Origin: Candidatus Iainarchaeum sp.
Lineage (GTDB): Archaea; Iainarchaeota; Iainarchaeia; Iainarchaeales; GCA-2688035
DNA: 24,000 nt
Assembly: GCA_020053055.1 (NCBI GenBank)
Contig: JAGVNX010000025.1
Location: forward strand, 20,996-44,995
Reading direction: 5' to 3'
Shown here: one piece after another, positions 2,352 to 23,236 of the stretch
Numbering within the stretch: the first letter of the stretch is position 1
Layout: each line of letters opens with the position of its first letter
Notes under the pieces: model-generated
Database searches by the model: none
Told to the model about the DNA's origin: nothing
Seen by the model: the letters and a program-made list of their open reading frames with translations, nothing else
Program-made: the position numbers and the translations under genes

Positions 2352-3230
2352 CTAAAAAATTATTGTTTTTGCAATTAGGTTTATTGCAAAAGAAACAGGC
2401 AGGAGGAACAGAGCATACAGAAACGCTTTTTTAGGGTTTCCCTCCTGGTTTGCAATGAAAAAACTTGCAAGCAAGGCATATTCAGCAATATAAATCTGGC
2501 TTGCCAAAGCAGTTGCTTCAAGAAGAGAATTTCTCTCTGAATTTTCAGCTCCAATTTCAAGGCTCTGCAAGCCTGAAAAATCAATTCCCGAAACCATTCC
2601 AAAAAGCAATCCGAGTATTGCAGGCACAATAAGGCCGCCTGCAAAAAACAGAGTGTATTTTTCGATTATCAGGGCAGAGTTTCTTTCCCTCAGAATGGAA
2701 TTTGTCTCAAAAAAATCCTCTGCAGATGCCCTGAAAACATTGCTTAAATCAGCTCCGCTTTCATAGCCCCTGATCATCAAGTCAATTGCCCTGCTGATAA
2801 TCCTGCTTTTGCACCGCTTTTTAATATTGCCCAGTGCTTCTTCGACAGAGACTCCTTTTTCAATTTCAAGCAAAGCAATTTCAAATTCCTTTCCCAGCAG
2901 GCCAAAATCCGCTTTTGAAAAAAACACAAAAATTTTGTTGATTGAAACCCCTTTCGGAAAAGCGCTTGCCTGCAGCAACAGGTCAGGCACAAGGCTTTCT
3001 TTTGCAAGTTTTTGGCTTTCGGATTTATAAAGCTCAAAAAAATAAAAGCAGATAATGGCTGCAAAAAAAGAGCCCAAAGAAAAACAAGTTATGTATAAGA
3101 AAGTGGTGTTGGTTATTATTCCGATTATTATTGCCAAAAAGCAAAATGCAAACCCGAGAAAAAAAGATTTTTTCAAAAAATTTTCTTTTTTTTTGATTTC
3201 CAAAAAAATTTTTTCTTGTGCAAAACCCAT
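2352..3230 (-). CDS. T2SSF-domain membrane platform protein (TadC / half-FlaJ-like)
   Basis: N-terminal TM segments are followed by a soluble helical region (LVPDLLLQASAFPKG...IISRAIDLMIRGYESGADLS) and C-terminal TM helices. This is the architecture of type II secretion system F domain proteins. It sits immediately downstream of its sister gene and the ATPase. Confidence 0.7.
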   Translation of the reverse strand: MGFAQEKIFLEIKKKENFLKKSFFLGFAFCFLAIIIGIITNTTFLYITCFSLGSFFAAIICFYFFELYKSESQKLAKESLVPDLLLQASAFPKGVSINKIFVFFSKADFGLLGKEFEIALLEIEKGVSVEEALGNIKKRCKSRIISRAIDLMIRGYESGADLSNVFRASAEDFFETNSILRERNSALIIEKYTLFFAGGLIVPAILGLLFGMVSGIDFSGLQSLEIGAENSERNSLLEATALASQIYIAEYALLASFFIANQEGNPKKAFLYALFLLPVSFAINLIAKTIIF

Positions 3231-3239
3231 TTTAATCCC

Positions 3240-4022
3240 TCAAAGCTTCAGAAACACAGGCGTTTTTGCCCGAATATAAAACAATACAAGCAAATCAACT
3301 AGCGGAAAGCCCAGGACAATTGCCAAAAAGACTTGTGCCAGAGTAAAATCTATTTTCAAAATCATGCTTCCCACAATTATAAAACTCTGGAACAAAGCCG
3401 GAACAATTGCAGAAACAGCAATAAACAGCAGGGAAAAAACAACAAGTTTTCCAGAAAAAGCCTTGCTTTCAGACCTTTGCTTTGCCAGCAATTCCAAAGC
3501 AATTCTCCTTACTGCTTCTGAACTCTTTATCCTGCCAGCCAAATCCTTGCTGCTTCCATGCTCGTAAACACTGCCCAGCTGCAAAACAGCGCGCTTCACA
3601 GCAACACTTTTGTTTCTCACGGCAAACCCAAGCAAAGCCTCCTGAATGCTCAGGCCTTTTTCCTTAACATCAAAAAAAATTTTTTTGAATTCCCCCGCAG
3701 TGGCAAGCTCATTTCTTGACGCATTAAAAACGCATTTTTCAAATGCAATATTCAAATCCAGGTCCATTGAAATTGAAAGCAACGCAAAAGGCAAATCCCT
3801 TTCAACGAACGAAACCCGCTTTTTTTCAGCCATAACAGGAATCAAAAGCATTGCAAAAAAAACCGCGCAAAAACAAGACAGCCCAAGAGCCAGTGCCAAA
3901 AAAATTTCCTCAAAAACAAGGGCAAAAACAAAACAAGCCAACAGCCCTGCAATTGCAGGATACGCAAAATTTTTTTCAGAAAAAAAAGACTTTTTTTTAA
4001 ACAATTTTTTTAACCAGGCCAT
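3240..4022 (-). CDS. T2SSF-domain membrane platform protein (TadB / half-FlaJ-like)
   Basis: It has the same TM-helical-TM architecture (VERDLPFALLSISMDL...AVKRAVLQLGSVYEHGSS). I prefer the ATG at 4022, 1 nt after the ATPase stop (TGAAATG), over the TTG at 4040 listed in the track. Confidence 0.7.
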   Translation of the reverse strand: MAWLKKLFKKKSFFSEKNFAYPAIAGLLACFVFALVFEEIFLALALGLSCFCAVFFAMLLIPVMAEKKRVSFVERDLPFALLSISMDLDLNIAFEKCVFNASRNELATAGEFKKIFFDVKEKGLSIQEALLGFAVRNKSVAVKRAVLQLGSVYEHGSSKDLAGRIKSSEAVRRIALELLAKQRSESKAFSGKLVVFSLLFIAVSAIVPALFQSFIIVGSMILKIDFTLAQVFLAIVLGFPLVDLLVLFYIRAKTPVFLKL

Positions 4023-4023
4023 T

Positions 4024-5475
4024 TCAAAAAACCCCCGCAAGAGGCTTGTTTATAGCTTCAAAAAAATCTTTTCCCAAAACTTTTTTTTGCGCAATCCAAT
4101 CCAAAAATTTTTTTCTTTTTTCTATTTCCAACAAAAATTTTTTCCTGTCAAAGCCCAAAAAATCCCTTGCTTTTGAAAAAACTTTTTCGCTTTCCCCTGT
4201 TTTTTCAAGGCAATCCCGTTGAAAATCAAGCCCAAACAACTGCCTTGTTTCTGCACATTCCCCTGAAAAGCCTATTTCCAAAGCCTCTACAATCCTGCGT
4301 TTTTCAACAAAGCCATGCCCGGAATGCTGTGCCCATCTTCTCTGCACAAGCAGCAAATCAATTGCAGCAAGGTCCAATTCTTTTATGCCAAACGATTTCA
4401 GCCTTGCAATCGCCTCTTTGCCGCATTGGGCATGAAATGTCCCATAACTCCCCCTGCCCTGCCCAGCAAGAAGAGTATCCATAAAAGCAATTGCTTCACA
4501 ATTATTCCTTATTTCGCCGACAACAACCCTGTCTGGCCGCATTCTCAAAGTGTCAATTATCAGGGAATGCATGTCAAAGCCCTGTTCTTTTACAACAGTC
4601 ATTTTTACGCAATGCTCGTGCGGCAAAACAATTTCCGGTGTTTCCTCGACTAAAATTATTCTCTCTTGTTTTGGAACAAAGCCAAGCAGGCAATTGAGAG
4701 TTGATGTTTTTCCGCTTCCGGTATTTCCTGCAATCAAAAAACTGCATTCTAATTCAAGGGCAAGCCAGATAAAAGCGCAGAATTCGCTTGAAAAAGTATT
4801 GTTTTCAACCAAATCAATTGCAGTAAACGGTTCTGCGCGGAATTTTCTTATTGTAAGGCTTGCTTCCTCGGAAATCGGGGGAATTATTGCAGTCAGCCTG
4901 CTTCCATCTGGCAAATTTGCGTTCAGTTTTGGGCATTCAAGAGTCAGCCGCCGCCCGATTTTTCTCGCCATTTTGTTTGCCAAGTCCCTTACAAAAATTT
5001 CGCTTCCAAAAAAAACATTTGTCCTGACCCAGCCGAATTCCCTGTGAAAAATAAAAACAGGCTTTTTCCTGCCAATGCCAATAACAGAAATTTCTTCTAT
5101 TGCAGGGTCATTCAAAAAAAAGTCCAATGCAGAAAAACCAAAAATTCTCGACTCCAAAATTTTTTCAAAATACTTTCTTTGCTCGGAATCAAGCAGAATG
5201 CTTTTTTCAACACAATAATTCTCAATAAAATTTTCCAAATCTTCAGGCTTCTTTTTCAAATTTTGGCCCTGAAAATCCCTTGTCATTTTTTTCAGGACAA
5301 GCGCTTCCTGCAAAGTAAGCTCAGGCAATTTTGCAAAATAACACAATTCTCCCGAGTCAAGCTCAATTATGCTGTGATTTTCAGATTCCAGCAAAATTTT
5401 CTTTGCTTTTTTTTCACGCAAAGAAAAACAATTCCAGCCAACAATCCTTTCAACAGGCCTTTCAGGTTTATCCAA
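4024..5475 (-). CDS. Type IV filament / secretion ATPase (FlaI-ArlI / TadA-CpaF / VirB11 superfamily)
   Basis: Walker A is AGNTGSGKTSTLN, the Asp box/Walker B is ERIILVEETPEI, and the His-box region is RMRPDRVVVGEIR. The start is a TTG directly after an in-frame TAG. No in-frame ATG occurs for about 60 codons. Confidence 0.85.
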   Translation of the reverse strand: MDKPERPVERIVGWNCFSLREKKAKKILLESENHSIIELDSGELCYFAKLPELTLQEALVLKKMTRDFQGQNLKKKPEDLENFIENYCVEKSILLDSEQRKYFEKILESRIFGFSALDFFLNDPAIEEISVIGIGRKKPVFIFHREFGWVRTNVFFGSEIFVRDLANKMARKIGRRLTLECPKLNANLPDGSRLTAIIPPISEEASLTIRKFRAEPFTAIDLVENNTFSSEFCAFIWLALELECSFLIAGNTGSGKTSTLNCLLGFVPKQERIILVEETPEIVLPHEHCVKMTVVKEQGFDMHSLIIDTLRMRPDRVVVGEIRNNCEAIAFMDTLLAGQGRGSYGTFHAQCGKEAIARLKSFGIKELDLAAIDLLLVQRRWAQHSGHGFVEKRRIVEALEIGFSGECAETRQLFGLDFQRDCLEKTGESEKVFSKARDFLGFDRKKFLLEIEKRKKFLDWIAQKKVLGKDFFEAINKPLAGVF

Positions 5476-5652: not shown

Positions 5653-5907
5653 TTATTCTGTTTTCAGCAAGGTGCTTAAGAGTACTATTGTTCCTGCAAT
5701 GTATAATGCGCCGCCAAGCACTGAAAGGGGATTTAATACTTGCCCCCAGATTCCTTTGCAATACCAACTGCAATTCAGGTTTGCGTAAACAGAAATTACT
5801 AAGGCAAAGGTAATCAAAAGCCAGCCAAGCACCAGTCTAAACCCAGTGCTTTTGTAAATGAGTTTTTGTTTTGCTTTTTTCTGGATTTCTTGTTCTTTAA
5901 TTGGCAT
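5653..5907 (-). CDS. Small membrane protein (84 aa, two predicted TM segments)
   Basis: ATG start lies 23 nt downstream of the giant gene's stop. A Lys-rich N-terminus is followed by two hydrophobic stretches. There is no class III (prepilin) or Flp G/xxxxEY signal. Confidence 0.5.
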   Translation of the reverse strand: MPIKEQEIQKKAKQKLIYKSTGFRLVLGWLLITFALVISVYANLNCSWYCKGIWGQVLNPLSVLGGALYIAGTIVLLSTLLKTE

Positions 5908-5930: not shown

Positions 5931-8900
5931 TTATTTTTTATAGCCTAACTTGTTTTTTTTGCTTCTAGTAACAGCAATTCCAATTGTCACTATTGCAATC
6001 ACAATGAGGATTATGAGGCCAGCTGTTGCCAAGTTAATTCCGCCTGTTGCAGGCGGCTGGCTAACCTGTGGCGTTACTGCTGGCGCTGGGCAATCTGCCG
6101 GGCAATTTACAGTTGTTTCCCCATTCTCGCATGTGCCATTGCCGCATTTTGGCCCCGCTGGAGGAATCACTGGTATTTTTACTTCAGTATAACCTGTGAC
6201 AATCGGGCTTCTTATTGTGCCTGCAATTGCATCAGTAATATTTTTTGCAACTTCATATGTAACGCTTGCTATTTCCCCTGTGTTTACTGTTGGAACAGTA
6301 AATTCTATTATGGGGTCTGATTTCAATACTTTCATTGAATAACTGCTTGTTATTTCAGAAGCATTTGCCGCAATTGCTTTTGGTATTTCCACAACAAGTT
6401 TTATGTCTTTCCAGTTTTTTGTGGAATTATTTGTCAAAGCAATTGTGATTGTAGTATTGTATGAAACAACTCCGGCAACGCTTGTATTTTTTTCAACTTT
6501 GACACTCTGGCTTACTGGAACTGCCTGTGCAATTTCAAGCATTTTTGGAGTAATGCTTGCATATCCTGCTTCTGTCAATATTAAGGCTATTTCATCTGAT
6601 GTCAATGGTGGGCTTTCAATTGCCTGTTCAATAATTGTCTCTGTTGTTGGAGTTTCTGGTGTTCCAGTGCCGCCGCCAGGCCCTGTTGGGGTTATAGGCG
6701 GTGGTGTTACAGGCGGATTTACAGAGCCGCCGCTTGCTGAACTGAATGTTATTGTTTTTGATTGGGCTGAACTGTTTAAATCCATGAAGTCCATTGCCTT
6801 GAAGTAATAAGTTAGTGTTGCAGGCAATGAAGCGCTGCTTGTAATACAGACATTGTAAGTGTTGACCATGCCATTGTCTAAATAATTTGTTCCGTTGCTG
6901 CTGTACCAGAATTTCTTTATGTTTGATGTGTCATTTGCATCCATGGTTACTCCTACGCAGAGCCCAGTTGAACTGCTTGCCCCTAACACTGTTAAAATTG
7001 GGTTGTTTGTGTCATTTATTCCTGCCGGATTTCTTGTTGAATTCTGGTCGCTTGTTGCAGTTGACATTCTGCTGTTTACATCAAATGCCCAGCTTCCAGC
7101 GCCCCTGTTATTGTCTGTTCTTACTCCTAAGAGCATGTCAATAAAGTACCTGCCTTCAAACAGGTTTTTTGCATTCAAATAAAAGCGACAATTTGTATCC
7201 CTGTTTGTAGTGTGGTTTTCATCTATTGTTCCCGCAACAGGCGCATTGCTGTGATAAGTGCATTTTACTGTGGTTTGCTGTGAATTTCCAATTGACCTGT
7301 TAGTATCTGAAAGCATTAAATTCAGGTCTTTGAATAGCAAATTGTTTTTGTCGCCTCTTGTCTGTGAATAGTATATTGAAAGGTTTAAGTCTCCCAGTGA
7401 CAGGTTTGTGTCCTGTATTCTTACATTAAAGTCTATTGCAAGGTTTTGGTCTGCAGTCAGGCCTGCCCTGTTGAAGTCAAAGAAAGTTGCGCCATAGCTG
7501 TTCATGAAGTTTGTATCCCAAATGTAAATGCTTGGCTTGTTGATTATTGTGTTTGCATCGCTTGTTGCACAAATAGTGTTTCCAACAGCAGCGCTTCTAG
7601 GCGCAGACATGTTGATGTCAATATAAAACTGACCCATTATTGTTGTGCGCAAATCCGGGAATGCCTGTACATCACCGCTAACTTTTCTTCTTGTTGTCCC
7701 AACAATGTATGTTCCTGAACCCGTTGTTCCAGTGAAATGGCTGAATCCTGCTTCACCACTGTCTTTATATCTTGCCAGGTCAAGACTTATTGAACAGGTT
7801 TGTGTTGTTGAAATGTTTGCATCGTCATCATTTAATGCATAGCCGTTTGTTGCCGTTGCTGCGAAAGATACTGGTGTTGTTGTACAACTAATTCCATTGT
7901 AATCCAAAATATTGTAGTCTGTGTACAGCAGATAGTGCTGCCCGCATTGCTTTTTTGACAAGTATATACTTACTGCAAAGTTTGCATCGCCTGGTTTCCA
8001 TGCTGAACTGTTTTGGTCCTGGTAATTTGTGTCTTTGTATGTGAATGTTACTGTCAAATTTCCATCTCTTGTGTAATATGTTCTTCCAGCATTAGAATCC
8101 CCGGTAACTGTTACAAATAAGCTTCCTGCGCTATATTCTGAAAAACCGCTTACTCTGAATGAAAGGTTTCCATCCCCTGCAATTGGGTCATAAACCCAAC
8201 TTGGCGTGGTGTCTGTAGCAGTGTAAATATTAGTATAAGAAAATGTGCCTGCATCAAGATTTTTGCATACTGTTGCGGGGCATAGTTTGCCGTTTCTTGC
8301 TAATGCTGGAATTGCCCCTGTGGACTTTATGTTATACAAAGTAATATTTGCATCTATTGGATTGCCAAAAGGATCTGTGCCAAATTCCGGCATTGTATCA
8401 GAATCAATTTTTGCCCTTCCTGAACTTCCATCCATGCCATTGTCATAGTCTCTTCTTGGGCCTGTCGCCATGTTCATGTCAGAATTCATTTTTATTTGTG
8501 CAATTAATACTGTTCCATTGGAGGTTTTCAATTGCACTTGTAATCCTGAAACTTGGCCTTGGTTTCTTATCATTCCGCCTCTCATGGCCTGGTCTACTGG
8601 CACTCTTTGGAATGTCTGCCCTGTGCCTGCTGCTTTGCAAGTATTATATCCTCCATTTGCGTCTTGGCAAATTCCAATTGTTACATTTTCATCGACGCTC
8701 ATTGTAAAGCCAGGCGTGACAATTATTTTTGCAGTTGCATTCATGTCTTTTACATACTGTGGGCTTAATCCACTGTTTATGTCAACCCTTATGTTATTGT
8801 CTGGAATTCCGTTTGGACCAGCAAGACTAATTGTAAATGGCACTTTGAAGTTCACATCAAACTGGCCGTTTGCATCAGGCCTTAGCATATAACCATAAAA

Positions 8901-9776
8901 GGGGGTTGTGACTTGTGGATTCAAATTCCATTGTGTTCCGCCATCTGGGATTATTCTCATGACTGTGTTTGCATTTCCATCAACGTATTTTTGTTGATTC
9001 CAGTCCATTTCCTTATTGTATCCTTCAGCGTATAGGTTATAGCCTATGGCATTTACATCTAAAAAGTTCATGTCTGTTATTGCGCCGTTAGCATCTTTGA
9101 ATTTGAGCCTTACATTTGCATCTGTTGGGAATCCATAGCCGAAAACTGTTACATTTCCGTCAACTGCCCCAAATTCAGGGCTTATTACTATTGCGGGCCC
9201 GATTACAAAGCGCACATTTGCATCAACGTTTGTACAAGTATAACTTCGAATTGCCCCTGCCCCTTGCTCTGCTACAAAAGACAATCTCCATAATTCCAAT
9301 ACTCCTGCTTTTCCGTTCATGTCCTGGTGGTTTGCATCAACAGGCACTGTTATTTTTACTTCGAAAGTATTTGCATCGCTTCTTATAAATCTTATAATGT
9401 TCATGTCTAACTGGCTGACTGTTGAATGAAAATTACTTATGCAGCCTCCGCCGACTATTCTTGCAGGAATTACATTTTCATCGCTTAAAGCCCCAAGATT
9501 TGCGTCAACAGCATTTAAGTCCCAGTATTTTGCGCTTCCAGATTGTGCATTGTAATTTATGTAATCCCATCTGAAGAAAACAGCGTAATTATAATCTGCA
9601 GTTATATTGCCGTCGGGGTTTTTTATTGAAAGGTTAAAGTCTTCGCCTGCGTTTGCGTGGTGTGCTCCTAAAGCATCGTAGGCTTTCAGCACTCCGCTTG
9701 CTGCAGTTGCATTCACAATTGAAAAAATAGTTATAAAAATTATTGAAAAAATTATTAGTTTAAAAAATCCTTTCAT
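5931..9776 (-). CDS. Giant surface protein (1281 aa from the preferred start): Sec signal, N/T/D-rich ectodomain, Cys-motif, Pro-rich stalk, C-terminal TM anchor
   Basis: ATG at 9776 is preceded by GGAGG (9785-9789) at 8-nt spacing; the track's TTG at 9815 is less likely. The signal peptide is MKGFFKLIIFSIIFITIFSIVNA-TA. The C-terminus reads KCGNGTCENGETTVNCPADCPAPAVTPQVSQPP, then INLATAGLIILIVIAIVTIGIAV, then RSKKNKLGYKK. Confidence 0.85.
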   Translation of the reverse strand: MKGFFKLIIFSIIFITIFSIVNATAASGVLKAYDALGAHHANAGEDFNLSIKNPDGNITADYNYAVFFRWDYINYNAQSGSAKYWDLNAVDANLGALSDENVIPARIVGGGCISNFHSTVSQLDMNIIRFIRSDANTFEVKITVPVDANHQDMNGKAGVLELWRLSFVAEQGAGAIRSYTCTNVDANVRFVIGPAIVISPEFGAVDGNVTVFGYGFPTDANVRLKFKDANGAITDMNFLDVNAIGYNLYAEGYNKEMDWNQQKYVDGNANTVMRIIPDGGTQWNLNPQVTTPFYGYMLRPDANGQFDVNFKVPFTISLAGPNGIPDNNIRVDINSGLSPQYVKDMNATAKIIVTPGFTMSVDENVTIGICQDANGGYNTCKAAGTGQTFQRVPVDQAMRGGMIRNQGQVSGLQVQLKTSNGTVLIAQIKMNSDMNMATGPRRDYDNGMDGSSGRAKIDSDTMPEFGTDPFGNPIDANITLYNIKSTGAIPALARNGKLCPATVCKNLDAGTFSYTNIYTATDTTPSWVYDPIAGDGNLSFRVSGFSEYSAGSLFVTVTGDSNAGRTYYTRDGNLTVTFTYKDTNYQDQNSSAWKPGDANFAVSIYLSKKQCGQHYLLYTDYNILDYNGISCTTTPVSFAATATNGYALNDDDANISTTQTCSISLDLARYKDSGEAGFSHFTGTTGSGTYIVGTTRRKVSGDVQAFPDLRTTIMGQFYIDINMSAPRSAAVGNTICATSDANTIINKPSIYIWDTNFMNSYGATFFDFNRAGLTADQNLAIDFNVRIQDTNLSLGDLNLSIYYSQTRGDKNNLLFKDLNLMLSDTNRSIGNSQQTTVKCTYHSNAPVAGTIDENHTTNRDTNCRFYLNAKNLFEGRYFIDMLLGVRTDNNRGAGSWAFDVNSRMSTATSDQNSTRNPAGINDTNNPILTVLGASSSTGLCVGVTMDANDTSNIKKFWYSSNGTNYLDNGMVNTYNVCITSSASLPATLTYYFKAMDFMDLNSSAQSKTITFSSASGGSVNPPVTPPPITPTGPGGGTGTPETPTTETIIEQAIESPPLTSDEIALILTEAGYASITPKMLEIAQAVPVSQSVKVEKNTSVAGVVSYNTTITIALTNNSTKNWKDIKLVVEIPKAIAANASEITSSYSMKVLKSDPIIEFTVPTVNTGEIASVTYEVAKNITDAIAGTIRSPIVTGYTEVKIPVIPPAGPKCGNGTCENGETTVNCPADCPAPAVTPQVSQPPATGGINLATAGLIILIVIAIVTIGIAVTRSKKNKLGYKK

Positions 9777-9859
9777 TTGCCAGGCCTCCAGGTCATAAAA
9801 TAAAAGTTGTTTCAAAAATATTATGTGTTAAATTTAGTACATAATTAGAAGTTCCTCAT

Positions 9860-12610
9860 TTAAATACTTTTCGCCGAAGTTTTTGCTTTGAATTTTATGA
9901 TTTTTTGCAGTATTTTTTCCGTGTAAGGGATGATTAATGCCGGCATTGCGAGCAGCAATGCAATCAGCCAGTTTTCCGGGCTTAAGGGGACTGTTCCTAT
10001 TGCGGTTTGCAATTGCGGAATTGTGATTGCTGCAGCGAGTATGATTAGAGAAGCAATTGTTGCAAGCACAAGGCTTTTGTTTCCAAACGGGTTTATTTGA
10101 AAAACATTTTTTTCGCTTCTGCAATTGAAAGCCAAGATTGTTTCGAATAGAATCAATGTTGCAAAAGCCATTGTCATTCCTGTTTTTGTGCTTTCTGCAA
10201 TTCCTATTCCGAAAGCAGCCAGTGAAACAATTGCGCCGGCAATTCCGGAAATTAAAACAAAAGAAACTGTTTTGCAATCAAGTATGCTTGTTTTTTTTTC
10301 CCTTGGTTTCTGGTTCATTAATTCTTCTCTTGCGGGTTCGTTTCCAAGTGCAATTGCAGGCAATCCGTCTGTTATCAGGTTAATGAACAATAATTGCACT
10401 GGCGCTAGGGGAAGAGCCCAATTTTTGTTTCCCAAAAAAAAACCCAGAATAATTGCCATTAAAATCAGGGTTACTTCTGCTGCATTTGCGCCTAACAAGT
10501 ATTTTATAAAATTCCTGATGTTTGCAAAAATCCTTCTTCCTTCGCGGACTGCGGAAACAATTGTTGCAAAATTGTCATCTAGCACAATCATGTCTGCGGC
10601 TTCCTTGCTCACTTCTGTTCCTGTAATGCCCATTGCAATTCCAATGTCTGCTTTTTTCAGGGCAGGCGCATCGTTTATTCCATCGCCTGTCATTGCGACA
10701 ACCTTGTTTTTTTTCTGCAATGCGTTTACAATTGCCAGTTTGTGTTCGGGATTTACCCTTGCAAAAACGCTTATTTTTCCTATTTTTTCCTCTAATTCTT
10801 TTTCGCTCATTTCTTCAAGCTCTTTTCCTGTTATTGCAGTTTCCCCGCTTTTCATTATGCCAAGCTGTTTTGCAACGGCAATTGCTGTCAGCAAGTGGTC
10901 TCCGGTAATCATTTTGACTTCAATGCCTGCGTTTTGGCACAATTTGATTGCATCAGAAGCCTCTTTTCTTGGCGCATCAATCATTGCGGACATTCCCAAA
11001 AAAACAAGTTCCGATTCAATATTTTCCATTTCTTTCAGGTTAATTTCTTTTTCCGCCTTAAATGCAAAGCCCAGCACCCTGTAGCCTTTTTCAGCAAGCT
11101 CGTTGTTTTTTGCCATTAATTTTTCGTATTCTGGTTTTGCCAGTTTTTTTTCTTTGCCTTCAACAAAAATTTTTGTGCTTTTTTCAAGCAATGATTCTAC
11201 ACTGCCTTTGCTGAAAACAATGCTGTTGTTTTCACTGCCAAAAATAACGCTCATCATTTTCCTTTGGGAATCAAACGGCTTTTCGCCTATAAATTCAAAT
11301 TGTTTTTCCAATTCTTTTTTTTCAATTGCAGCTTTTTTTGCAGCTGCAAGCAATGCTATTTCAGTGGGGTCTCCGGTTGAATCATTTTCAGAAAAATTTG
11401 CATTGTTGCATAAAACGCTGTTTTGAATCAGCAATTTCAATTCTTTTTCTTCGTCCAAATTCACTTCTTGTTTTTCAAAAAAAATTTTTCCTTTTGCATT
11501 AAAGCCAGAGCCGCTTACGTCAAACAATTTTTCATTGCAAAAAATTTTTTCCACGGTAAGCTCGTTTTTTGTCAGAGTCCCTGTTTTGTCAGAGCAAATA
11601 ACGCTTGTGCTTCCCAGTGTTTCAACTGCAGACATTTTTCGAATCAAAGCGTTTTTTCCTGCCATTATTTTCATTCCAAGCGCAAGAGTGATTGTAACAA
11701 CAGCAGTCAGCCCTTCGGGAACAGCTGCAACTGAAAGGCTCACTGCTGTAAAAAACATTAATTTCCAGCCGTTTCCCGAAAGCGTTCCGATTGCAAAAAT
11801 TGCAATGCAAACCAGTATTATTGCAATTCCAAGAGTTTTTCCAAAAGAATCAATGTTTTTTTCCAAAGGGGTTTTTTCTTTTTCAATGTTCTGAATCAAA
11901 CAGCTTATTTTTCCAAATTCTGTTTTCATGCCTGTTCCGGCAATTATTGCTTTTCCCCTTCCGTAGACAATTGTCGTGTTGGCAAAAACCATGTTTTCCC
12001 TGTCGGCAACTTGTGCATTTTCAATGATTTTTTCAGATTTTTTTTCCACTGGCTGGCTTTCCCCGCTTAATGCTGATTCATTGGCTTTGAGATTCATAGC
12101 CATTATTATCCTGGCATCAGCAGGAACCTTGTTTCCTTCGCACAGCACAATTAGGTCTCCGGGCACTAATTCAGCGGAATCAATTGAACGCGTTTTTCCG
12201 TTTCTAATCACAACTGCTTTTACCGATGCAAGCTTTTGCAGTGCATCCATTGCTTTTTCTGCCTTGAATTCCTGGTGAAAACCGAGCGCTGCGTTGAGGA
12301 TTATTATTGCAACAATTACAAGCGCATCTATGCTGGATTCATCTCCAATAAAAAAAGAAATTATTGCTGCCGCAATAAGAAGCCAAACCAGGAAGCTTGA
12401 AAACTGGTTCAAAAAAATTTTTAATGCGCCGGAAGAACTTTTTTTTTCAAGCTTGTTTTTTCCGAATTCCAAAAGCCTTTTTTGCGCTTCTTCTTCCTTC
12501 AAGCCTTTTTCAGAATCCGAGCCAAGCCTTGCAACAGCTTCCAAATAATCCAGGGCATGCCAGGCAATGTTTTGTGCGCCAGCAATATTTGTTTCTTTAT
12601 TATAAGCCAT
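9860..12610 (-). CDS. P-type ATPase, type IIA (Ca2+-transporting SERCA/PMCA-like)
   Basis: Motifs present: CSDKTGTLT phosphorylation motif, PEGL in TM4 (AVPEGLTAVVTITLALG), MITGDHLLTA, and the hinge VAMTGDGINDAPALKKADIGIAMG. It has 10-TM-type topology and is 916 aa long. Confidence 0.9.
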   Translation of the reverse strand: MAYNKETNIAGAQNIAWHALDYLEAVARLGSDSEKGLKEEEAQKRLLEFGKNKLEKKSSSGALKIFLNQFSSFLVWLLIAAAIISFFIGDESSIDALVIVAIIILNAALGFHQEFKAEKAMDALQKLASVKAVVIRNGKTRSIDSAELVPGDLIVLCEGNKVPADARIIMAMNLKANESALSGESQPVEKKSEKIIENAQVADRENMVFANTTIVYGRGKAIIAGTGMKTEFGKISCLIQNIEKEKTPLEKNIDSFGKTLGIAIILVCIAIFAIGTLSGNGWKLMFFTAVSLSVAAVPEGLTAVVTITLALGMKIMAGKNALIRKMSAVETLGSTSVICSDKTGTLTKNELTVEKIFCNEKLFDVSGSGFNAKGKIFFEKQEVNLDEEKELKLLIQNSVLCNNANFSENDSTGDPTEIALLAAAKKAAIEKKELEKQFEFIGEKPFDSQRKMMSVIFGSENNSIVFSKGSVESLLEKSTKIFVEGKEKKLAKPEYEKLMAKNNELAEKGYRVLGFAFKAEKEINLKEMENIESELVFLGMSAMIDAPRKEASDAIKLCQNAGIEVKMITGDHLLTAIAVAKQLGIMKSGETAITGKELEEMSEKELEEKIGKISVFARVNPEHKLAIVNALQKKNKVVAMTGDGINDAPALKKADIGIAMGITGTEVSKEAADMIVLDDNFATIVSAVREGRRIFANIRNFIKYLLGANAAEVTLILMAIILGFFLGNKNWALPLAPVQLLFINLITDGLPAIALGNEPAREELMNQKPREKKTSILDCKTVSFVLISGIAGAIVSLAAFGIGIAESTKTGMTMAFATLILFETILAFNCRSEKNVFQINPFGNKSLVLATIASLIILAAAITIPQLQTAIGTVPLSPENWLIALLLAMPALIIPYTEKILQKIIKFKAKTSAKSI

Positions 12611-16723: not shown

Positions 16724-17655
16724 TTAACTAAGTAACATATTTAACTTTTTCCTCTTAACGGGGTGGTCGAAACCTATTAGCATACTGAATTTTTTTAGGC
16801 TTTCTTTTTGCTGGATTCTTATTGTATATAATGGCAAATATTTGTTTGATTTAACCCATTTATTTTTATTGGTAAAAATCTCTTGTTGTTGTAATAACAA
16901 AAAAACCTGTTCAACTATGCCTTTGCTTGTGCTTGAGAAACTGGCCCATCTTTTAGTGACTGTTCCGTCAGAATCAAATAAGCCTTTAATGCAGGCATTT
17001 ATAATTTCTGCTTTGCCGCAATTTGCAATTCTGTTGGGGATTATTATTTTATCTGCCTTTTTGCCAGCCGCAATTTTGAAAAAAGATCTAAAAAACCACT
17101 GAACAACTTTTGAATAAAAATAGCATTCATAATAATGTTTCTTTGAAAAATAGAACTTTGGTTCTGTTTCGAAGTTGTCCTTGATTATTCTTTGATATTT
17201 TTGCATATGCTCGAAATTATCGAAGTAGACTGCGATTGCCCAATTCCGGTTTTATTAACTGTATCGCCTGCCAAATGGCCATCGCCAAGGATTAAGCCGA
17301 TAGCATAAGCCAAATCAGGAGTCAGCATTTTGGGAAATTTTAAATTCTGCCTATTTCGGTTGGTTCTTTGCACTGTAAACCTAATTGTTTTGCCCCAAAT
17401 TTTTTTCAAAATTTTGTGTCGGAGGTTCTGAGGAACTAATGCTAAAAGTGTGTTGAATTTTTTAAGATGAATTGGGATTCTGCCAGTGCGGGTTTCTTTT
17501 ATCGTAGAATAGGATACTTTACTGAGCCTGGCTGCTTTTGTGCTTCCGCCGAGATAATCTGTAAGTTCGCAAATTTCTTCTTTCAGTCCTGACAGATAAA
17601 TAGCTTCATTGAGCCAATCTTTTTGTATATCAAAAATATTCAAATCCGTCTTCAT
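16724..17655 (-). pseudogene. Free-standing HTH + double-motif LAGLIDADG homing endonuclease, split by a frameshift
   Basis: Two overlapping ORFs, 17185-17655 and 16724-17206. The first motif is AYAIGLILGDGHL and the second is IKGLFDSDGTV. The N-terminus has an HTH-like segment (STKAARLSKVSYSTIKETR). Adding one A to the run at 17250-17253 (T4 on the plus strand) gives a continuous ...GDTVNKNRNWAIAVYFDNFEHMQKY... reading frame. Confidence 0.7.
16737..16750 (-). promoter_or_regulatory. BRE/TATA-like promoter for tRNA-Gln, embedded in the 3' end of the endonuclease ORF
   Basis: The minus strand reads AAAAAG-TTAAATAT, and the TATA element ends 24 nt upstream of tRNA position 1 (16712). This is typical archaeal promoter spacing. 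Confidence 0.45.
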
Positions 17656-17710: not shown

Positions 17711-18409
17711 TTATTTGCCGAATTTTCTTTGCCTTGCATAGTATTCTTTTATTGCTGAATCCAGGTCTGTTTGGCTTATTTCTGGCCAGTTTTTTTCCAA
17801 AAAGTATAATTCTGAGTATGCGCTTTGGTATGTCAAAAATCCGCTCAAGCGCTGTGTTCCGGATGTTCTTATTATTAAATCCGGGTTTTGGAAATCTGCG
17901 TACAAGAATTTTTGGAATGTGCTTGTTGTGAGTTCTGCCAGCTTGATTGTGCCTTGTTTGTATTGTTCTGCTATTTTTTTTGCTGCATCAATTATTTCTA
18001 TTTGCCCGGTGTATCCTATTGCAAGGTTCATTCTTTTGTTTTTGAAGTTTTCAGTGAATTTTTCAGTATCCTCTATTTTTTCGCAGAGTTTTTTTGGAAG
18101 CAGATCTGTTCTGCCTATGACTTTCATTTTTATTTGGTTTTTTTCAAACAATCCGGATTTTTTTATTTTGTCTAATTCTTTTTCAAAAATTTTGTATAAC
18201 AATTGGAGTTCTGTTTTTTTTCTCTGCAAATTTTCAAGCGACAGCGTATAAAATGTCCCTGTTTTTATTTCAGGATAGTTGTTTAGCCAGTCGAATACTT
18301 CCCAGGCTTTTTTTGTGCCTATTCGATACGCTTCGAACAGCCCGATTCCTTGTTTTTGTGCGAATCTCCTGTTTCCGTCCGGAATAAATGCTATTGAATT
18401 CAACGCCAT
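17711..18409 (-). CDS. uppS: Cis-prenyltransferase (undecaprenyl/dolichyl-type polyprenyl diphosphate synthase, UppS family)
   Basis: It has the FIPDGNRRFA motif (DGNRRxA) and the C-terminal IRTSGTQRLSGFLTYQSAYSELYFLEKNWPE (RTSGE.RLS.FL.WQ..Y.E..F....WP). Confidence 0.9.
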   Translation of the reverse strand: MALNSIAFIPDGNRRFAQKQGIGLFEAYRIGTKKAWEVFDWLNNYPEIKTGTFYTLSLENLQRKKTELQLLYKIFEKELDKIKKSGLFEKNQIKMKVIGRTDLLPKKLCEKIEDTEKFTENFKNKRMNLAIGYTGQIEIIDAAKKIAEQYKQGTIKLAELTTSTFQKFLYADFQNPDLIIRTSGTQRLSGFLTYQSAYSELYFLEKNWPEISQTDLDSAIKEYYARQRKFGK

Positions 18410-18537
18410 GTTTCCACTTTTTTAAATTAGTTTTATTTTTTGTTTAATTAATTGGGGGCAATAATTATTTATTAAGCGTGTTTTTTGTTTAAAAAGATAT
18501 TCTTTAATAATACAAAATTCAAATTATTATTGTTTTT

Positions 18538-18708
18538 ATGCAGCATCTTAAAAAAAACAGGGAAAAAGATTTTGAATTGGATGTTCTTGAAAATCCCAAT
18601 AACCCAAAAGAGGCTCCAAGGCTTGATTTGAACATAAGCCCGGAGAGGATTAAATTGCTTTTGGAGGAAATAAAAGTCCCTCCGCTCAAAATGCTGAAGG
18701 AAAAATAA
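18538..18708 (+). CDS. Small hypothetical ORF (56 aa), below the ORF-track cutoff
   Basis: ATG...TAA translates to MQHLKKNREKDFELDVLENPNNPKEAPRLDLNISPERIKLLLEEIKVPPLKMLKEK. Its composition is more protein-like than the overlapping low-complexity 82-aa minus-strand ORF. It sits just upstream of the DUF192 gene on the same strand. Confidence 0.35.
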   Translation: MQHLKKNREKDFELDVLENPNNPKEAPRLDLNISPERIKLLLEEIKVPPLKMLKEK

Positions 18709-18726
18709 TTTTTTTTGTGGCTTTCT

Positions 18727-19086
18727 ATGCTCTTAAACAAATCAAATTCAAAAAAAATAATTTTCAAAGTCCGGATTGCCGATACTTCCTGGAAAAGGCT
18801 CAGGGGCTTGATGTTTGAAAACCAGGCTTTGTTTGATTATGCGCTTGTTTTTAATTTGCCAAGGGAATCTGTTTTGCAAGCCACTATTCATATGCTTTTT
18901 GTTTTCTTCCCTATTGATGTTGTTTTTCTTGACAAAAACAGGAAAGTTGTTGATGTTATAAAAAGCCTCTTGCCGTTCACCCCAAGTTGTTCCCCAAAAA
19001 AGCCCGCAAAGTTCTTGATAGAATTGCCTGCCGGCAAAGCCAATGGCATAAAAGAAGGTGATGAATTGGACTGGCACGAGGATTAA
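18727..19086 (+). CDS. DUF192-family protein (COG1430-like)
   Basis: ADTSWKRLRGLMF...ALVFNLP...IHMLFVFFPIDVVFLDKNRKVV...IELPAG follows the DUF192 pattern (A.T...R..GLM.r, M....PLD..F.d). I prefer the ATG at 18727 over the TTG at 18715. Confidence 0.7.
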   Translation: MLLNKSNSKKIIFKVRIADTSWKRLRGLMFENQALFDYALVFNLPRESVLQATIHMLFVFFPIDVVFLDKNRKVVDVIKSLLPFTPSCSPKKPAKFLIELPAGKANGIKEGDELDWHED

Positions 19087-19099
19087 GCCAAAAATCAGT

Positions 19100-19279
19100 T
19101 CAAGTTCTTGTTTCTTCTATGTATCCTTCTTTGCATTTTTCAGAGCAAAAATTTTGAAACCACAAGTGTGTTCCTTCGTTTTCAAGTTGTTTTCCGCACT
19201 GAAGGCAAAATTTTTGCTTTTGGCCAGGCAAAATTCTCTTGTTGCTATTGCTTTTCTTAATATACCTGTCAAGATCCAT
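19100..19279 (-). CDS. Small zinc-ribbon protein (59 aa), TRASH/FCS-like C-x2-C...FCS-x2-C
   Basis: Hand translation: MDLDRYIKKSNSNKRILPGQKQKFCLQCGKQLENEGTHLWFQNFCSEKCKEGYIEETRT, ATG to TGA. It has four Cys in a CxxC-x16-CxxxC pattern. It falls below the 60-aa track cutoff and replaces the implausible plus-strand ORF 19058-19318. Confidence 0.5.
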   Translation of the reverse strand: MDLDRYIKKSNSNKRILPGQKQKFCLQCGKQLENEGTHLWFQNFCSEKCKEGYIEETRT

Positions 19280-19535
19280 TTTATCCCACTTATAGCGTAT
19301 AACTTAATAATAATCTAAAACAAGGATTAATTAAAATATTGTCTATTGGTTATTGCTTTAAAAAACAAACCCGGCTTATACTGCGATTGACGAAAAAACA
19401 ATCGTCATTTTATGAATTTTTTGGCTTGCTTTTTTTAGTTTTTTGAACCAACGTGTTTTTTATACTACTTTGCATTTAATATCTTGGTGGGTTGAATATC
19501 ACCCCCGAATTCTGTACATAGAAGGCAAAAGGCAA

Positions 19536-19585
19536 AGGAGGAAAGTTAAACTCTAATTCTTTTAACTTTCCTCTTATTTTATTTA
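19536..19585 (+). terminator. Strong hairpin (15-bp stem, 10-nt loop) followed by a T-rich tract, in an ORF-free 325-nt spacer
   Basis: AGGAGGAAAGTTAAA (19536-19550) pairs with TTTAACTTTCCTCTT (19561-19575): 14 Watson-Crick pairs plus one G-U. TATTTTATTT follows. No plus-strand gene ends nearby, since DUF192 stops at 19086. Confidence 0.45.
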
Positions 19586-19645
19586 AAGTTTTTCCTGTTT
19601 GAATATGAGCAATATTTATTAATCCAGACTTCTATATTCTAATTT

Positions 19646-20248
19646 ATGGGTTTTCTGCAATTAATTTCAACGGGATTTGAAAGGCTGGTTTTGGGCTTGA
19701 ATTTCTATGCGTTTGCAGTTTCAAGCGTGTTCAAAGGCACTATTATTTCCCCATTCGCGCGGATTACTTTTTATAATAACATTAAAATTGGCAAAAACTG
19801 TAGAATTTCTTCGGGCTGTGTTTTCAGGGTCCCTAAAACAGCCCGCTTGGTTATTGGAAACAATTGCGATTTCAGGGAATATTCCCAAGTGCTTTGCAGG
19901 GAAGGCCAAACAACAGAATTTGGCGATAATTGCCTGATCCAATCATTCAGCTTTGTTTCAGATAATGCCAAAATTGGCAATAATGTGATTCTTGCCCCGC
20001 ATTCAGTTATTATTGCCGCTACCCACAATTTTGGTTCCATTGAAATTCCAATTTTAAAACAAGGTTCTAACACCAGCCCAATTGAAATCGGCAATAATGT
20101 CTGGATAGGGACGCATGCAATTATTCTCGGGCCATCCAAAATCGGTTCGGATTCAATAATAGGCGCAGGAACTTTTGTAAAAGGAGATATTCCTGAAAAA
20201 TCAATTGTAAAAGGCGAAAGGAAATTAACAATTACAAAAAGGCATTGA
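19646..20248 (+). CDS. Left-handed beta-helix (hexapeptide-repeat) acetyltransferase, sugar O-/N-acetyltransferase type
   Basis: It has tandem hexapeptide repeats, e.g. IGNNVILAPHSVII and IGNNVWIGTHAIILGPSKIGSDSIIGAGTFVKGDIP. The TATA-like ATATTTATTA sits about 26 nt upstream of the ATG, suggesting a near-leaderless mRNA. Confidence 0.85.
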   Translation: MGFLQLISTGFERLVLGLNFYAFAVSSVFKGTIISPFARITFYNNIKIGKNCRISSGCVFRVPKTARLVIGNNCDFREYSQVLCREGQTTEFGDNCLIQSFSFVSDNAKIGNNVILAPHSVIIAATHNFGSIEIPILKQGSNTSPIEIGNNVWIGTHAIILGPSKIGSDSIIGAGTFVKGDIPEKSIVKGERKLTITKRH

Positions 20249-20275
20249 ATTCTTTTTTTCCAAGGTTTTTCTCTT

Positions 20276-21919
20276 TTAGAGAAAAAGCTTTTTTACTATT
20301 TTTCTCAGGAATTCAATCCTGAAGCCTGTTTTTCTTTCAATTGCAACCAATACTTCCAAATCTTCTTTTTCAAAGCATTTCAATGCAAGGAAAAACAGTG
20401 CATAAATCGGCAGGAACACAAGGCCGGTTACCAGGGCAGGCATTATTCCCGTGCCAGTGATTCCGGATATTAATTTGCCGATTATTGGAATGCCTGCGCC
20501 AAAAAGCTTGGCGCTTGCAGCCATGAATGCATTGATTCCGGCCTGAGTTATTGGCAGGGTTGCCAGCAAAAAGGCAATTGCTGTTCCGCTTATGCCTGCC
20601 AAAACAATTTTGAAGTATGTTTTTGTAAAAGGCTGTATCCTGAAAAGCCAGTGCAATTCAATTATGCCCAAGGCGCCCCAGGCAATGTAAGCTATTGCTG
20701 TTCCGATTGCAGCGCCTATTTGTGCGGAATTGCTTTGCATGAACAAAGGAATCAGGATTATATCAAGCACGGCAACAGTTACCCCTGCAATTATTGCATT
20801 AAACAGGGTTAGCTTTGTTTTTCCCGCGGCTATTAATGTTTGCTGGGCAGGGCCTGTTACTGCATAAAACAGAAACCCTGTGAGAAGAATGCTCATTGCC
20901 AATGCGCTGTTTGCATAGGCTTTTCCAAAAAACAGTATTTGGACAGGCTCTGCAAACAAAACCAGCAGCAATGAAAGTGGCAGTACCATTGCAAGAGTCC
21001 ATCTCGCAAGGGCATTGTAAATTTTTTTGAATTCTGCAAATTTTTCAAGTGCAAAATAGCTTGTTGCAATCGGAATCCCAAGAACAGCCATTATTTCAAC
21101 AGGAGTCAAGCCAAGCCTTGCAGTGTCAAGCGCAACACTGTAAATCCCTGTATTGTATGCTGGCGCAAAAAAGCCGAGCAGCAGCACATCGCAAATTGCA
21201 AGCACTGCCGAAAAAAGCCCCATTAAAAACAATGGCATTGAAAAAACCAGCATTTCTTTGCTGACAAAAATTGTTTTTATTTTTGAGTTCAGGGAAAAAA
21301 CTTTTTTTTCAAGGAAAAAAAACGCAAAAACAAGGCCAATTGCCTCGGAAAAAATAAATGTAAGGACTGCCCCGGTTAAGGTTAAGCCGGCGTAAAAAAA
21401 CCCCGCCAAGAGAATTATTTTTGCAATAATTTGTATTATCCTCCTGATATAAATCTTGTATTGGATTTTTTTGAATCCGTCCATTGCAAGCATAAGGTCT
21501 GATGCAATCAAGGAAACAGGCACGACAAAAGCCAATAATTTCAGCAAAAATCCAAGTTCGGGTTTTGAAAAAAAAGCAATTGCAATCCAGTCTGACAAAA
21601 AGAAAACAGTGATTCCAATTGCAATTGAAGAAACAATGTGAATTCTGATTGTTGAAAGAATGCTTCCCTTTACTCTTTCCAAATCTTTTTTTTCTTTGTA
21701 AAAGGCAACAAATCTTGTCAGGGAATCAGCTATGCCAATGTTTGCAATTATTCCAAAAAGCCCTATGACTGCAGTTGCAATAAAAAACAGCCCCAGTTCC
21801 GAAGGAGTAAGTATTCTTGCCAAAAAAATGTTGAAAAAATAGCCAAGTATCTTGCTTGCAATAACGCCCAAGGCCATTAATGCAGCGCCTTTTACAATTA
21901 GGTTTAAGTCTGCTTGCAT
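20276..21919 (-). CDS. MOP-superfamily polysaccharide/oligosaccharide flippase (Wzx/AglR-like)
   Basis: It is polytopic (about 14 hydrophobic segments). The N-terminal LIVKGAALMALGVIASKILGYFFNIFLARIL is typical of Wzx/polysaccharide biosynthesis proteins. I prefer the ATG at 21919 over the TTG at 21964. Confidence 0.8.
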   Translation of the reverse strand: MQADLNLIVKGAALMALGVIASKILGYFFNIFLARILTPSELGLFFIATAVIGLFGIIANIGIADSLTRFVAFYKEKKDLERVKGSILSTIRIHIVSSIAIGITVFFLSDWIAIAFFSKPELGFLLKLLAFVVPVSLIASDLMLAMDGFKKIQYKIYIRRIIQIIAKIILLAGFFYAGLTLTGAVLTFIFSEAIGLVFAFFFLEKKVFSLNSKIKTIFVSKEMLVFSMPLFLMGLFSAVLAICDVLLLGFFAPAYNTGIYSVALDTARLGLTPVEIMAVLGIPIATSYFALEKFAEFKKIYNALARWTLAMVLPLSLLLVLFAEPVQILFFGKAYANSALAMSILLTGFLFYAVTGPAQQTLIAAGKTKLTLFNAIIAGVTVAVLDIILIPLFMQSNSAQIGAAIGTAIAYIAWGALGIIELHWLFRIQPFTKTYFKIVLAGISGTAIAFLLATLPITQAGINAFMAASAKLFGAGIPIIGKLISGITGTGIMPALVTGLVFLPIYALFFLALKCFEKEDLEVLVAIERKTGFRIEFLRKIVKKLFL

Positions 21920-21979
21920 ACTATCTGCTTTGTTTAAAGTGTTTTTTAAATTCCATTGGTTCAAAGGGCAAACATATAA

Positions 21980-23116: not shown

Positions 23117-23236
23117 TAGAATCAGAAGAATAAAAAACAAAAGAATTTTTAAAGCAATTATGTTTTTTTTTGCGGGATTAAGATTTTCTTTTAAAGCATT
23201 GTTTTTTTATTGTTTTCAATCCAAAAATAATGCATT

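Follow-up and report, generated by a model that had tools for sequence, protein, structure and literature searches.

The 24,000-nucleotide stretch of Candidatus Iainarchaeum sp. DNA analyzed here (positions 20,996 to 44,995 of contig JAGVNX010000025.1; hereafter the window, in whose numbering coordinates are given) encodes a giant surface protein in which two thirds of all aspartates stand exactly two residues before an asparagine. Sequence comparisons point to this tripeptide, D-x-N, as the hallmark of a lineage-specific cell-surface protein family of Iainarchaeota, a phylum of DPANN archaea formerly called Diapherotrites. We tentatively propose that each unit forms a dyad of one carboxylate and one amide, which would bind divalent cations and stabilize an array of beta-sandwich domains; this is the interpretation that we favor, with some reserve, over strand capping, asparagine modification, and ligand binding.

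Strength and Origin of the D-x-N Bias

The protein contains 83 Asp and 114 Asn residues, which form 55 D-x-N units, every one of them between residues 46 and 1001; its ectodomain (residues 1–1010) has 78 Asp and 100 Asn (9.9%). The original prediction, made from the sequence by hand count, had given about 55 units, about 77 ectodomain aspartates, and an Asn content of one residue in ten, and it proved accurate down to its tripeptide counts (DAN 13, DTN 6, DMN 5, DGN 5, DLN 4) and its 18 sites that extend to D-x-N-x-S/T. The strong excess that it described also withstood shuffled controls, which never came near 55: whole-protein shuffles gave 7.4 ± 2.5 units (maximum 18 in 10,000) and ectodomain shuffles 7.9 ± 2.55 (maximum 19 in 20,000). 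Among 2,000 residue pairs at gaps of 0–4, D-x-N is the sole strong outlier (z = 16.9), the next real signal having a z of about 4. The excess is limited to the one-residue gap, with D..N counts of 4, 6, 3, and 4 at gaps 0, 2, 3, and 4, respectively, and it is directional, the reverse N-x-D occurring only six times; N-x-N and D-x-D are found three times each, and S-x-N and D-x-T are depleted. Near-absence of E-x-N had likewise been claimed, and a single one exists among the 30 Glu of the protein. The 22 other open reading frames (ORFs) of the window that were examined have 0–2 D-x-N each, at chance expectation.

At the DNA level, ten copies of [AG]TTTGCATC had been reported on the plus strand; all were recovered, with no further copy in the window. 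Read on the opposite strand, this sequence is GAT-GCA-AAY, the codons for Asp-Ala-Asn. The general pattern GAYNNNAAY occurs 55 times in the coding frame versus twice in the other two frames, the four codon pairs are balanced (GAC/AAC 16, GAT/AAT 14, GAT/AAC 13, GAC/AAT 12), and no direct DNA repeats of at least 20 nucleotides were found. The in-frame restriction, the equal use of codon combinations, and the lack of DNA repeats rule out an origin at the DNA level, be it a repeat, a restriction-type motif, or AAY targeting by a diversity-generating retroelement. The D-x-N bias is therefore selected at the protein level.

The layout of the gene and of its 1281-amino acid (aa) product is as follows, immunoglobulin being abbreviated Ig:

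5931–9776, minus strand: surface-protein gene, stop codon at 5931–5933, ATG start at 9776 (MKGFF), 1281 aa
9708–9776, minus strand: predicted Sec-type signal peptide, residues 1–23, ending in VNA before TAA, read from the sequence
6774–9641, minus strand: D-x-N-rich ectodomain, residues 46–1001, which holds all 55 units; predicted all-beta Ig-like sandwich array
6636–6731, minus strand: Pro/Thr/Gly-rich linker, residues 1016–1047, read from the sequence
6174–6635, minus strand: conserved membrane-proximal module, residues 1048–1201 (about 150 aa), with no D-x-N and several plain N-x-S/T
6090–6149, minus strand: Cys-rich motif KCGNGTCENGETTVNCPADC, residues 1210–1229
5934–6038, minus strand: C-terminal transmembrane helix (residues 1247–1269) and Lys-rich cytoplasmic tail (1270–1281), kept in homologs

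The mechanical ORF (5931–9815) begins with a TTG at 9815, 13 codons upstream of the ATG at 9776; the ATG start is backed by homologs and by database entry P0001, an identical protein already on record and annotated as "hypothetical protein." Given its signal sequence, ectodomain, single transmembrane helix, and Lys-rich tail, the product is predicted to be a type-I anchored cell-surface protein. The hydrophobic N-terminus, with its small-x-small end, is kept in homologs. A class III (pilin-type) signal peptide was considered for the sake of the adjacent pilus-type ATPase but is not supported, the K/R-G/A cleavage context not being kept in homologs. The whole ectodomain spans about 990 residues, compared with about 950–1000 across the family, and a small Cys-rich motif, CGNGTCENGETTVNCPADC, stands between the conserved module and the transmembrane helix. 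No credible Pfam match was obtained for this protein (a single spurious hit fell below threshold) and none in NCBIfam; a profile search against PDB sequences returned only marginal fn3/Ig matches, for the last ectodomain module.

Two further features of the protein deserve mention. The C-terminal part (residues 1048–1281; window 5934–6635), made of the domain of about 150 aa, a CGNGxCExGE...C..DC motif, the transmembrane helix, and a KK tail, recurs as a stalk and anchor module in another surface protein, an fn3-containing one encoded by a relative (L001:320–3133), which has no D-x-N bias. Being common to an unbiased protein, this module looks like a lineage-wide anchoring cassette. In addition, a single classical DxDxDG-like calcium loop, RRDYDNGMDGS (residues 441–451; window about 8424–8456), lies apart from the D-x-N units, within a highly conserved segment (GPRRDY...TMPEF).

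A Family of Surface Proteins and Its D-x-N Units

A word-index search identified three relatives with 58%, 30%, and 29% identity, which contain 57, 53, and 64 D-x-N, respectively, and one E-x-N each. By profile search among 1.84 billion representative proteins we obtained 49 matches, 27 of them with E-values below 1e-30; a second word-index search, with a 33-sequence profile, returned only 5 proteins. The roughly 50 relatives are all uncharacterized and come from Iainarchaeota metagenomes. In the strong matches, 47–80% of Asp residues are within D-x-N (up to 100% in short fragments) and E-x-N occurs 0–5 times; a typical share is 50–65%, which most of the weaker matches reach as well, and the weaker profile matches are still enriched in D-x-N 3–5-fold.

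Most of the majority consensus of the 33-sequence alignment is "x," interrupted by D-x-N. As many as 52 D-x-N column pairs are common to at least 10 sequences and about 30 are conserved at 85% or more, despite an overall identity of about 30%. Mean column conservation reaches 0.81 for D and 0.78 for N in these units, above Cys (0.72), Trp (0.63), Pro (0.61), other Asp (0.54), and other Asn (0.48); although only about 12% of all columns hold D-x-N residues, these account for 44 of the 80 best-conserved ones. Where the D is lost, the usual replacements are N (43 cases), S, G, and T, with E being rare (7 cases), whereas a lost N becomes T, S, D, or G and rarely Q, substitutions that would preserve size or metal-binding ability. 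One relative (P0004) carries a lineage-specific insertion of about 200 residues with an equal D-x-N density.

It had been suggested that other surface proteins of this genome and its relatives be checked for the same bias, and this bias did not generalize: among the other large proteins on related contigs that are secreted or anchored, six have D-x-N at chance or only modestly above it, as exemplified by the following:

L001, 937-aa fn3 protein: 2 D-x-N observed, 3.5 expected; same C-terminal anchor module, 19 N-x-S/T
L009, 1130-aa protein: 3 observed, 3.8 expected
L009, 372-aa protein: 2 observed, 0.8 expected
L010, 325-aa protein: 1 observed, 2.0 expected

Only a 1524-aa secreted protein (L008:17880–22451) is mildly enriched, with 28 D-x-N observed versus about 10 expected. 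It comprises about seven propeller-like repeats of about 63 aa (IAVDDTNIHI.W.D.TNYAGAGTD.DIFYKTK), followed by two D-x-N-rich domains (residues 1111–1297) and several CGDGxC..E..C..DC motifs. The D-x-N-rich domains resemble residues 570–680 or so of the window protein, as judged by eye; a search of this protein with the family hidden Markov model gave no match. Because moderately enriched domains are present both in the weaker profile matches and in the L008 protein, the D-x-N rule appears to belong to a domain type rather than to one gene.

The anatomy of the unit was examined with a logo pooled over four proteins (227 units), with D taken as position 0 and N as +2. Positions −4 and −2 are weakly hydrophobic or aromatic; A, M, V, and Q are enriched at x (+1), which is never P or C; and V/I/L/F at +3, S/T/Q/A at +4, F/I/V at +5, and a hydrophobic residue at +7 follow downstream. 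Pro is absent from +1 and from +3 (0/227 sites each), and at what would be ligand 5 of an EF-hand, D and N are depleted five-fold. At conserved sites x itself is often fixed and hydrophobic, with F in 22/22, G in 24/25, and L or V in most. As the logo shows alternating hydrophobic residues, the simplest reading is that x, +3, +5, and +7 would point into the core and that D, N, and +4 would be turned outward at the start of a strand. Spacing between units is aperiodic and never below 4 residues, with broad modes at 5–7 and 11–13 residues and about one unit per 18 residues. An all-against-all comparison of 120-residue chunks revealed no internal sequence repeats, the weak matches being driven by D-x-N itself, and this rules out tandem domain repeats with one motif each.

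Structure prediction had been proposed as a means of locating the units. Using AlphaFold2 with the 33-sequence alignment on residues 25–1010 (protein only, no ions), we obtained an all-beta model with a mean predicted local distance difference test (pLDDT) of 67.5 and a predicted TM-score (pTM) of 0.45; a second model, of residues 25–242, reached 79.1 and 0.77, respectively. The 52 modeled strands of at least three residues compare with 55 D-x-N units, that is, about one unit per strand. In the stretch PAIVISPEFGAVDGNVTVFGYGFPTDANVRLKF, units are found at turn-to-strand positions, where TIG-like domains have G-G-T. When compared with the PDB by Foldseek, the whole model matched multi-domain Ig/MG-type arrays (A2ML1, TEP1, complement C3 and C5, leptin receptor) as well as the surface layer (S-layer) protein of N. 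maritimus (8c8m, E = 1.8e-7). The TM-scores are low (0.10–0.17) and the architecture alone is therefore shared with these proteins; residues 25–242 retrieved only generic Ig-V or reeler-like sandwiches (E of about 2e-3, TM-score at most 0.48). With moderate confidence, the ectodomain is thus predicted to be an array of Ig-like beta-sandwiches, in a protein whose modeled layout resembles that of archaeal S-layer or envelope proteins.

Proposed Metal Binding and Alternative Roles of the Units

The logo suggests that D and N are neighbors on the exposed face, at the start or end of a strand. Under the cation-binding proposal, dyads from neighboring strands or domains would jointly chelate Ca2+ or Mg2+, probably two dyads per ion; the bound cations would neutralize a strongly acidic ectodomain and rigidify domains, junctions, or lattice contacts, as Asp and Asn do in cadherins and RTX extender domains. 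The net charge of the ectodomain ranges from −16 to −98 across the family, most of it contributed by D-x-N aspartates, and cancelling the charge of these aspartates brings the family median near zero. The strict order of D then N, the exclusion of Glu and Gln, and the D/N swaps favor a geometrically constrained metal site over a loose cap, and the positional invariance of the units and their restriction to one family favor a structural site over a general sequon. There is precedent in the S-layer of N. maritimus, whose integrity depends on calcium (PMC11153153).

Several observations weigh against this proposal. Confidence in the whole-ectodomain model is medium, 204 of its residues having a pLDDT under 50. 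Units at or near strand ends are only weakly enriched in the model (67% vs. 52% of all residues, p = 0.03), so that their placement rests more on the logo than on the model; structure prediction thus bore out the expected beta-rich fold and gave little for strand-boundary placement. None of the known Ca2+ motifs matches (cadherin DxNDN, DxDxDG, beta-gamma-crystallin N/D-N/D-x-x-S/T-S). Finally, the gene adjoins that of a Ca2+-type ATPase, and this synteny is a weak hint because collinearity among these genomes extends over all of the roughly 25-kb region, unrelated housekeeping genes included (PAC2, riboflavin kinase, cis-prenyltransferase, and a 1500-residue protein also belong to it); we accordingly downgraded a functional linkage between the two. 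Of the structural readings first offered, a Ca2+-binding turn of a beta-rich fold agrees with the predicted Ig-like sandwiches and with the status of D-x-N as a family hallmark, whereas an Asn ladder and a sequence repeat fell away: the aperiodic spacing, the lack of internal or DNA repeats, the sandwich models, and a logo that puts N on the exposed face all speak against a beta-helix ladder.

Cadherin repeats and RTX extender domains (MhLap, AhLap, MpIBP, SiiE) are alike in being extracellular arrays of Ig-like sandwiches whose Asp and Asn side chains are the best kept, and these coordinate Ca2+ there at linkers or on domains, with one to several ions per domain interface (PMC7493085). The end of a cadherin repeat even shares the local pattern phi-x-phi-x-D-x-N. 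Unlike these domains, those of the window protein are not sequence repeats, show no sequence or Pfam relationship to them (and no Pfam Cadherin match), and would bind metal by analogy. They also differ in having 5–6 D-x-N per 100 residues or so instead of one motif per domain of about 110 residues, in continuing after N with a hydrophobic strand (V, I, L, F) instead of D-N-x-P (D being depleted five-fold there), in lacking DRE/DxD companions, and in never using Glu. A cadherin-type Ca2+ repeat was accordingly discarded, as there is no DxNDN(xP) at each domain boundary. In EF-hand-like DxDxDG loops and in the E-P-N of C-type lectins, an acidic residue and an Asn at i and i+2 can ligate one Ca2+. 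Both are loops that contain additional fixed ligands (x-D-G; cis-Pro and WND), in contrast to D-x-N, which excludes Pro, lies in a beta-strand context, and has no third fixed ligand; the depletion of D and N at ligand 5 dismisses an EF-hand-like D-x-[DN]-x-[DN]-G loop. Archaeal Ig-array S-layer proteins (NmSLP, 8c8m; csg of H. volcanii) resemble the window protein in having a signal peptide, an acidic ectodomain, about ten beta-sandwich domains, and an anchor close to the membrane, and NmSLP combines calcium dependence with N-x-S/T glycans (PMC11153153). They show no sequence similarity to it, and no D-x-N bias has been reported for them. The window protein is itself predicted to be secreted and to consist of tandem Ig-like sandwich domains (AlphaFold and Foldseek, moderate confidence). 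By analogy, it may thus work most like Ca2+-stitched beta-sandwich surface arrays while being laid out like archaeal Ig-array S-layer proteins. Because the cadherin motifs, DxDxDG, and the PglB sequon each fail on a tested feature, and no Pfam, NCBIfam, or PDB sequence relationship was found, it belongs to no defined family.

An acidic determinant at −2, as in the extended PglB sequon D/E-X1-N-X2-S/T, had been put forward as a cause of the bias, and some features do recall it: the Asp at −2, the 18 sites that formally fit, and the exclusion of Pro at X1 and X2 (0/227 each), which a beta-strand context also predicts. This explanation did not hold up. A PglB-type sequon accepts Asp or Glu, yet E-x-N accounts for 1 of 30 Glu here and occurs 0–5 times across the 50 or so relatives; it also demands S/T at +2 (counted from Asn), yet 37 of the 55 sites have none and 18 have one. 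At the majority of the conserved units, just 0–25% of sequences have S/T at +2, and only about 4–5 conserved columns keep it above 65% (e.g., DENVT, DANIT); these few D-x-N-x-T/S units may additionally carry ordinary N-glycans. As Glu is excluded, S/T at +2 unconserved, the bias limited to one family and not extended to the other secreted proteins, and the sites positionally conserved, a general sequon read at −2 would not explain the bias, and a conservation of sites above that of Cys and Trp appears unlike a glycan shield. Archaeal AglB is not known to sense position −2, and no AglB gene was found in the window or in the relatives' loci examined. There is a narrower version, which we regard as unlikely, in which D-x-N is the recognition site of an enzyme acting on this family with a strict −2 Asp and no need for S/T at +2, whether an oligosaccharyltransferase, another glycosyltransferase, or an enzyme that modifies Asn or Asp differently. 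Two fixed residues around a free middle, with total exclusion of Pro on either side of Asn, are sequon-like and in this respect count against a metal site. Moreover, 18 of the 21 ectodomain N-x-S/T sites of the window protein have D at −2, S/T at +2 follows 63/228 D-x-N versus 26/203 other Asn when four proteins are pooled (p = 2e-4), dolichol/glycan genes are nearby (cis-prenyltransferase, Wzx/AglR-like flippase, acyltransferase), and heavy N-glycosylation is usual for surface proteins of archaea (PMC11153153). Set against this are the absence of the S/T association in the relatives P0003 and P0004, the seven plain N-x-S/T sites without D in the protein's own C-terminal module, the six unbiased secreted or anchored proteins next to a single mildly enriched one, and the exclusion of Glu, unlike in the PglB sequon. 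Sites that outrank Cys and Trp among proteins of about 30% identity would be unusual for glycosites, and in the relatives' loci examined no candidate modifying enzyme is kept beside the gene. It is more doubtful still that D-x-N is a new Asn-modification sequon, with a dedicated archaeal transferase decorating this one family at about 50 fixed positions; if so, it would be a third type of N-glycosylation sequon beside N-x-S/T and D/E-x-N-x-S/T.

A metal-free role also deserves consideration, though we hold it to be on the unlikely side: Asp and Asn might act as a hydrogen-bonding strand cap, or as an Asx-turn-type polar collar at the sandwich poles, setting strand register and protecting edges without ions. 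Units do occur at turn-to-strand transitions, for example in vDGNvTVfGyGF, which lines up with the beginning of TIG-like domains (GGT-x-VTI-x-G-x-x-F); conservation of the sites is positional, and the residues that replace D (N, S, T, G) and N (T, S, D, G) are typical of turns and caps. Asx/ST caps, however, normally tolerate interchange of D, N, S, and T, whereas order and identity are strict here, as the rarity of N-x-D, N-x-N, and D-x-D indicates (6, 3, and 3), and no Ig-like family is known to standardize its caps in this way. A cap would also leave unexplained why about 55 uncompensated negative charges are retained. The exposure of D and N implied by the logo is equally compatible with a binding surface, either for host-cell glycans via Ca2+ or for mineral or metal-oxide surfaces, which would make the protein an adhesin of a possibly host-dependent DPANN cell. 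The acid-x-Asn of C-type lectins (E-P-N) is a Ca2+/sugar dyad, the gene always lies directly upstream of type-IV-pilus-like ATPase and platform genes, and many DPANN archaea attach to hosts. We nevertheless judge this very improbable: the dyads occur throughout all domains and at both poles instead of clustering on one face or in a tip domain, ligand sites of adhesins usually vary among relatives whereas D-x-N residues are the most conserved, and Foldseek revealed no fold similarity to lectins.

Genomic Context and Significance

The family gene is present in one copy, at a conserved genomic position, in each relative examined. Its immediate neighbors are the following:

9860–12610, minus strand: type-II (Ca2+-type) P-type ATPase, adjoining the family gene on its upstream side in every relative examined
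4024–5475, minus strand: FlaI/TadA-like ATPase, always on the downstream side of the family gene
3240–4040 and 2352–3230, minus strand: two TadC-like membrane proteins, always downstream of the family gene

The gene order P-type ATPase, D-x-N protein, FlaI/TadA-like ATPase, two TadC-like proteins, and PAC2 is conserved down to 30% identity, the flanking arrangement holding for relatives at 58% and at 30–32%. Among NCBIfam models, the window P-type ATPase best matches PMR1/SERCA-type enzymes, with a score of 694 bits that is below the PMR1-type cut-off of 798, and its L008 ortholog passes the PMCA-type cut-off. In L009, a CorA gene stands directly upstream. An 84-aa membrane ORF (5653–5907) lies between the surface-protein gene and that of the FlaI/TadA-like ATPase, and no obvious pilin gene was seen at the window locus or at the relatives' loci (L001–L010). 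The surrounding genes are archaeal, as judged by PAC2, a KaiC-like ATPase, a geranylgeranyl reductase, and the FlaI/TadA-like ATPase with its TadC-like partners.

Farther away, a run of dolichol/glycan genes (17711–23140) comprises a cis-prenyltransferase (17711–18409), a hexapeptide acyltransferase (19646–20248), a Wzx/AglR-like polysaccharide flippase (20276–21964), and the geranylgeranyl reductase (21980–23140); because of these genes, the gene content suggests that the organism can glycosylate surface proteins. Near the other end of the window, two very Arg-rich ORFs of 267 and 82 aa (366–1169 and 1249–1497, both on the minus strand) share the motif IPGD..V.V.VH.DTT.I.R..GRI..E and have no Pfam match; in L001, ORFs of 55 and 260 aa occupy the corresponding positions (18194–19217), matched by size and place alone. 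A free-standing ORF at 16724–17206 (minus strand), which overlaps the end of ORF 17185–17655, has a LAGLIDADG_3 homing-endonuclease-like domain (E = 1e-12).

DPANN archaea either have not been cultivated or are difficult to cultivate, and their envelopes are almost uncharacterized. Full-text literature searches turned up only papers on cadherin DXNDN and on the PglB sequon, none of which describes a D-x-N rule for surface proteins of archaea, and the motif appears to be unreported. Ig-like surface arrays are themselves known; what is new is such an array with an unprecedented family-wide two-residue signature, a code better conserved than even Cys and Trp. Should the dyads bind cations, they would define an unusually dense, sequence-readable, metal-stitched beta-sandwich architecture, in which roughly every strand has its site, and a design rule for protein engineering; if they are modification sites, a new sequon would be defined. 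Either way, an Asp fraction in D-x-N above 0.5 together with E-x-N near zero provides a cheap signature for finding related envelope proteins in metagenomes, and the D-x-N family is conserved in one DPANN phylum, where it probably supplies a major surface protein.

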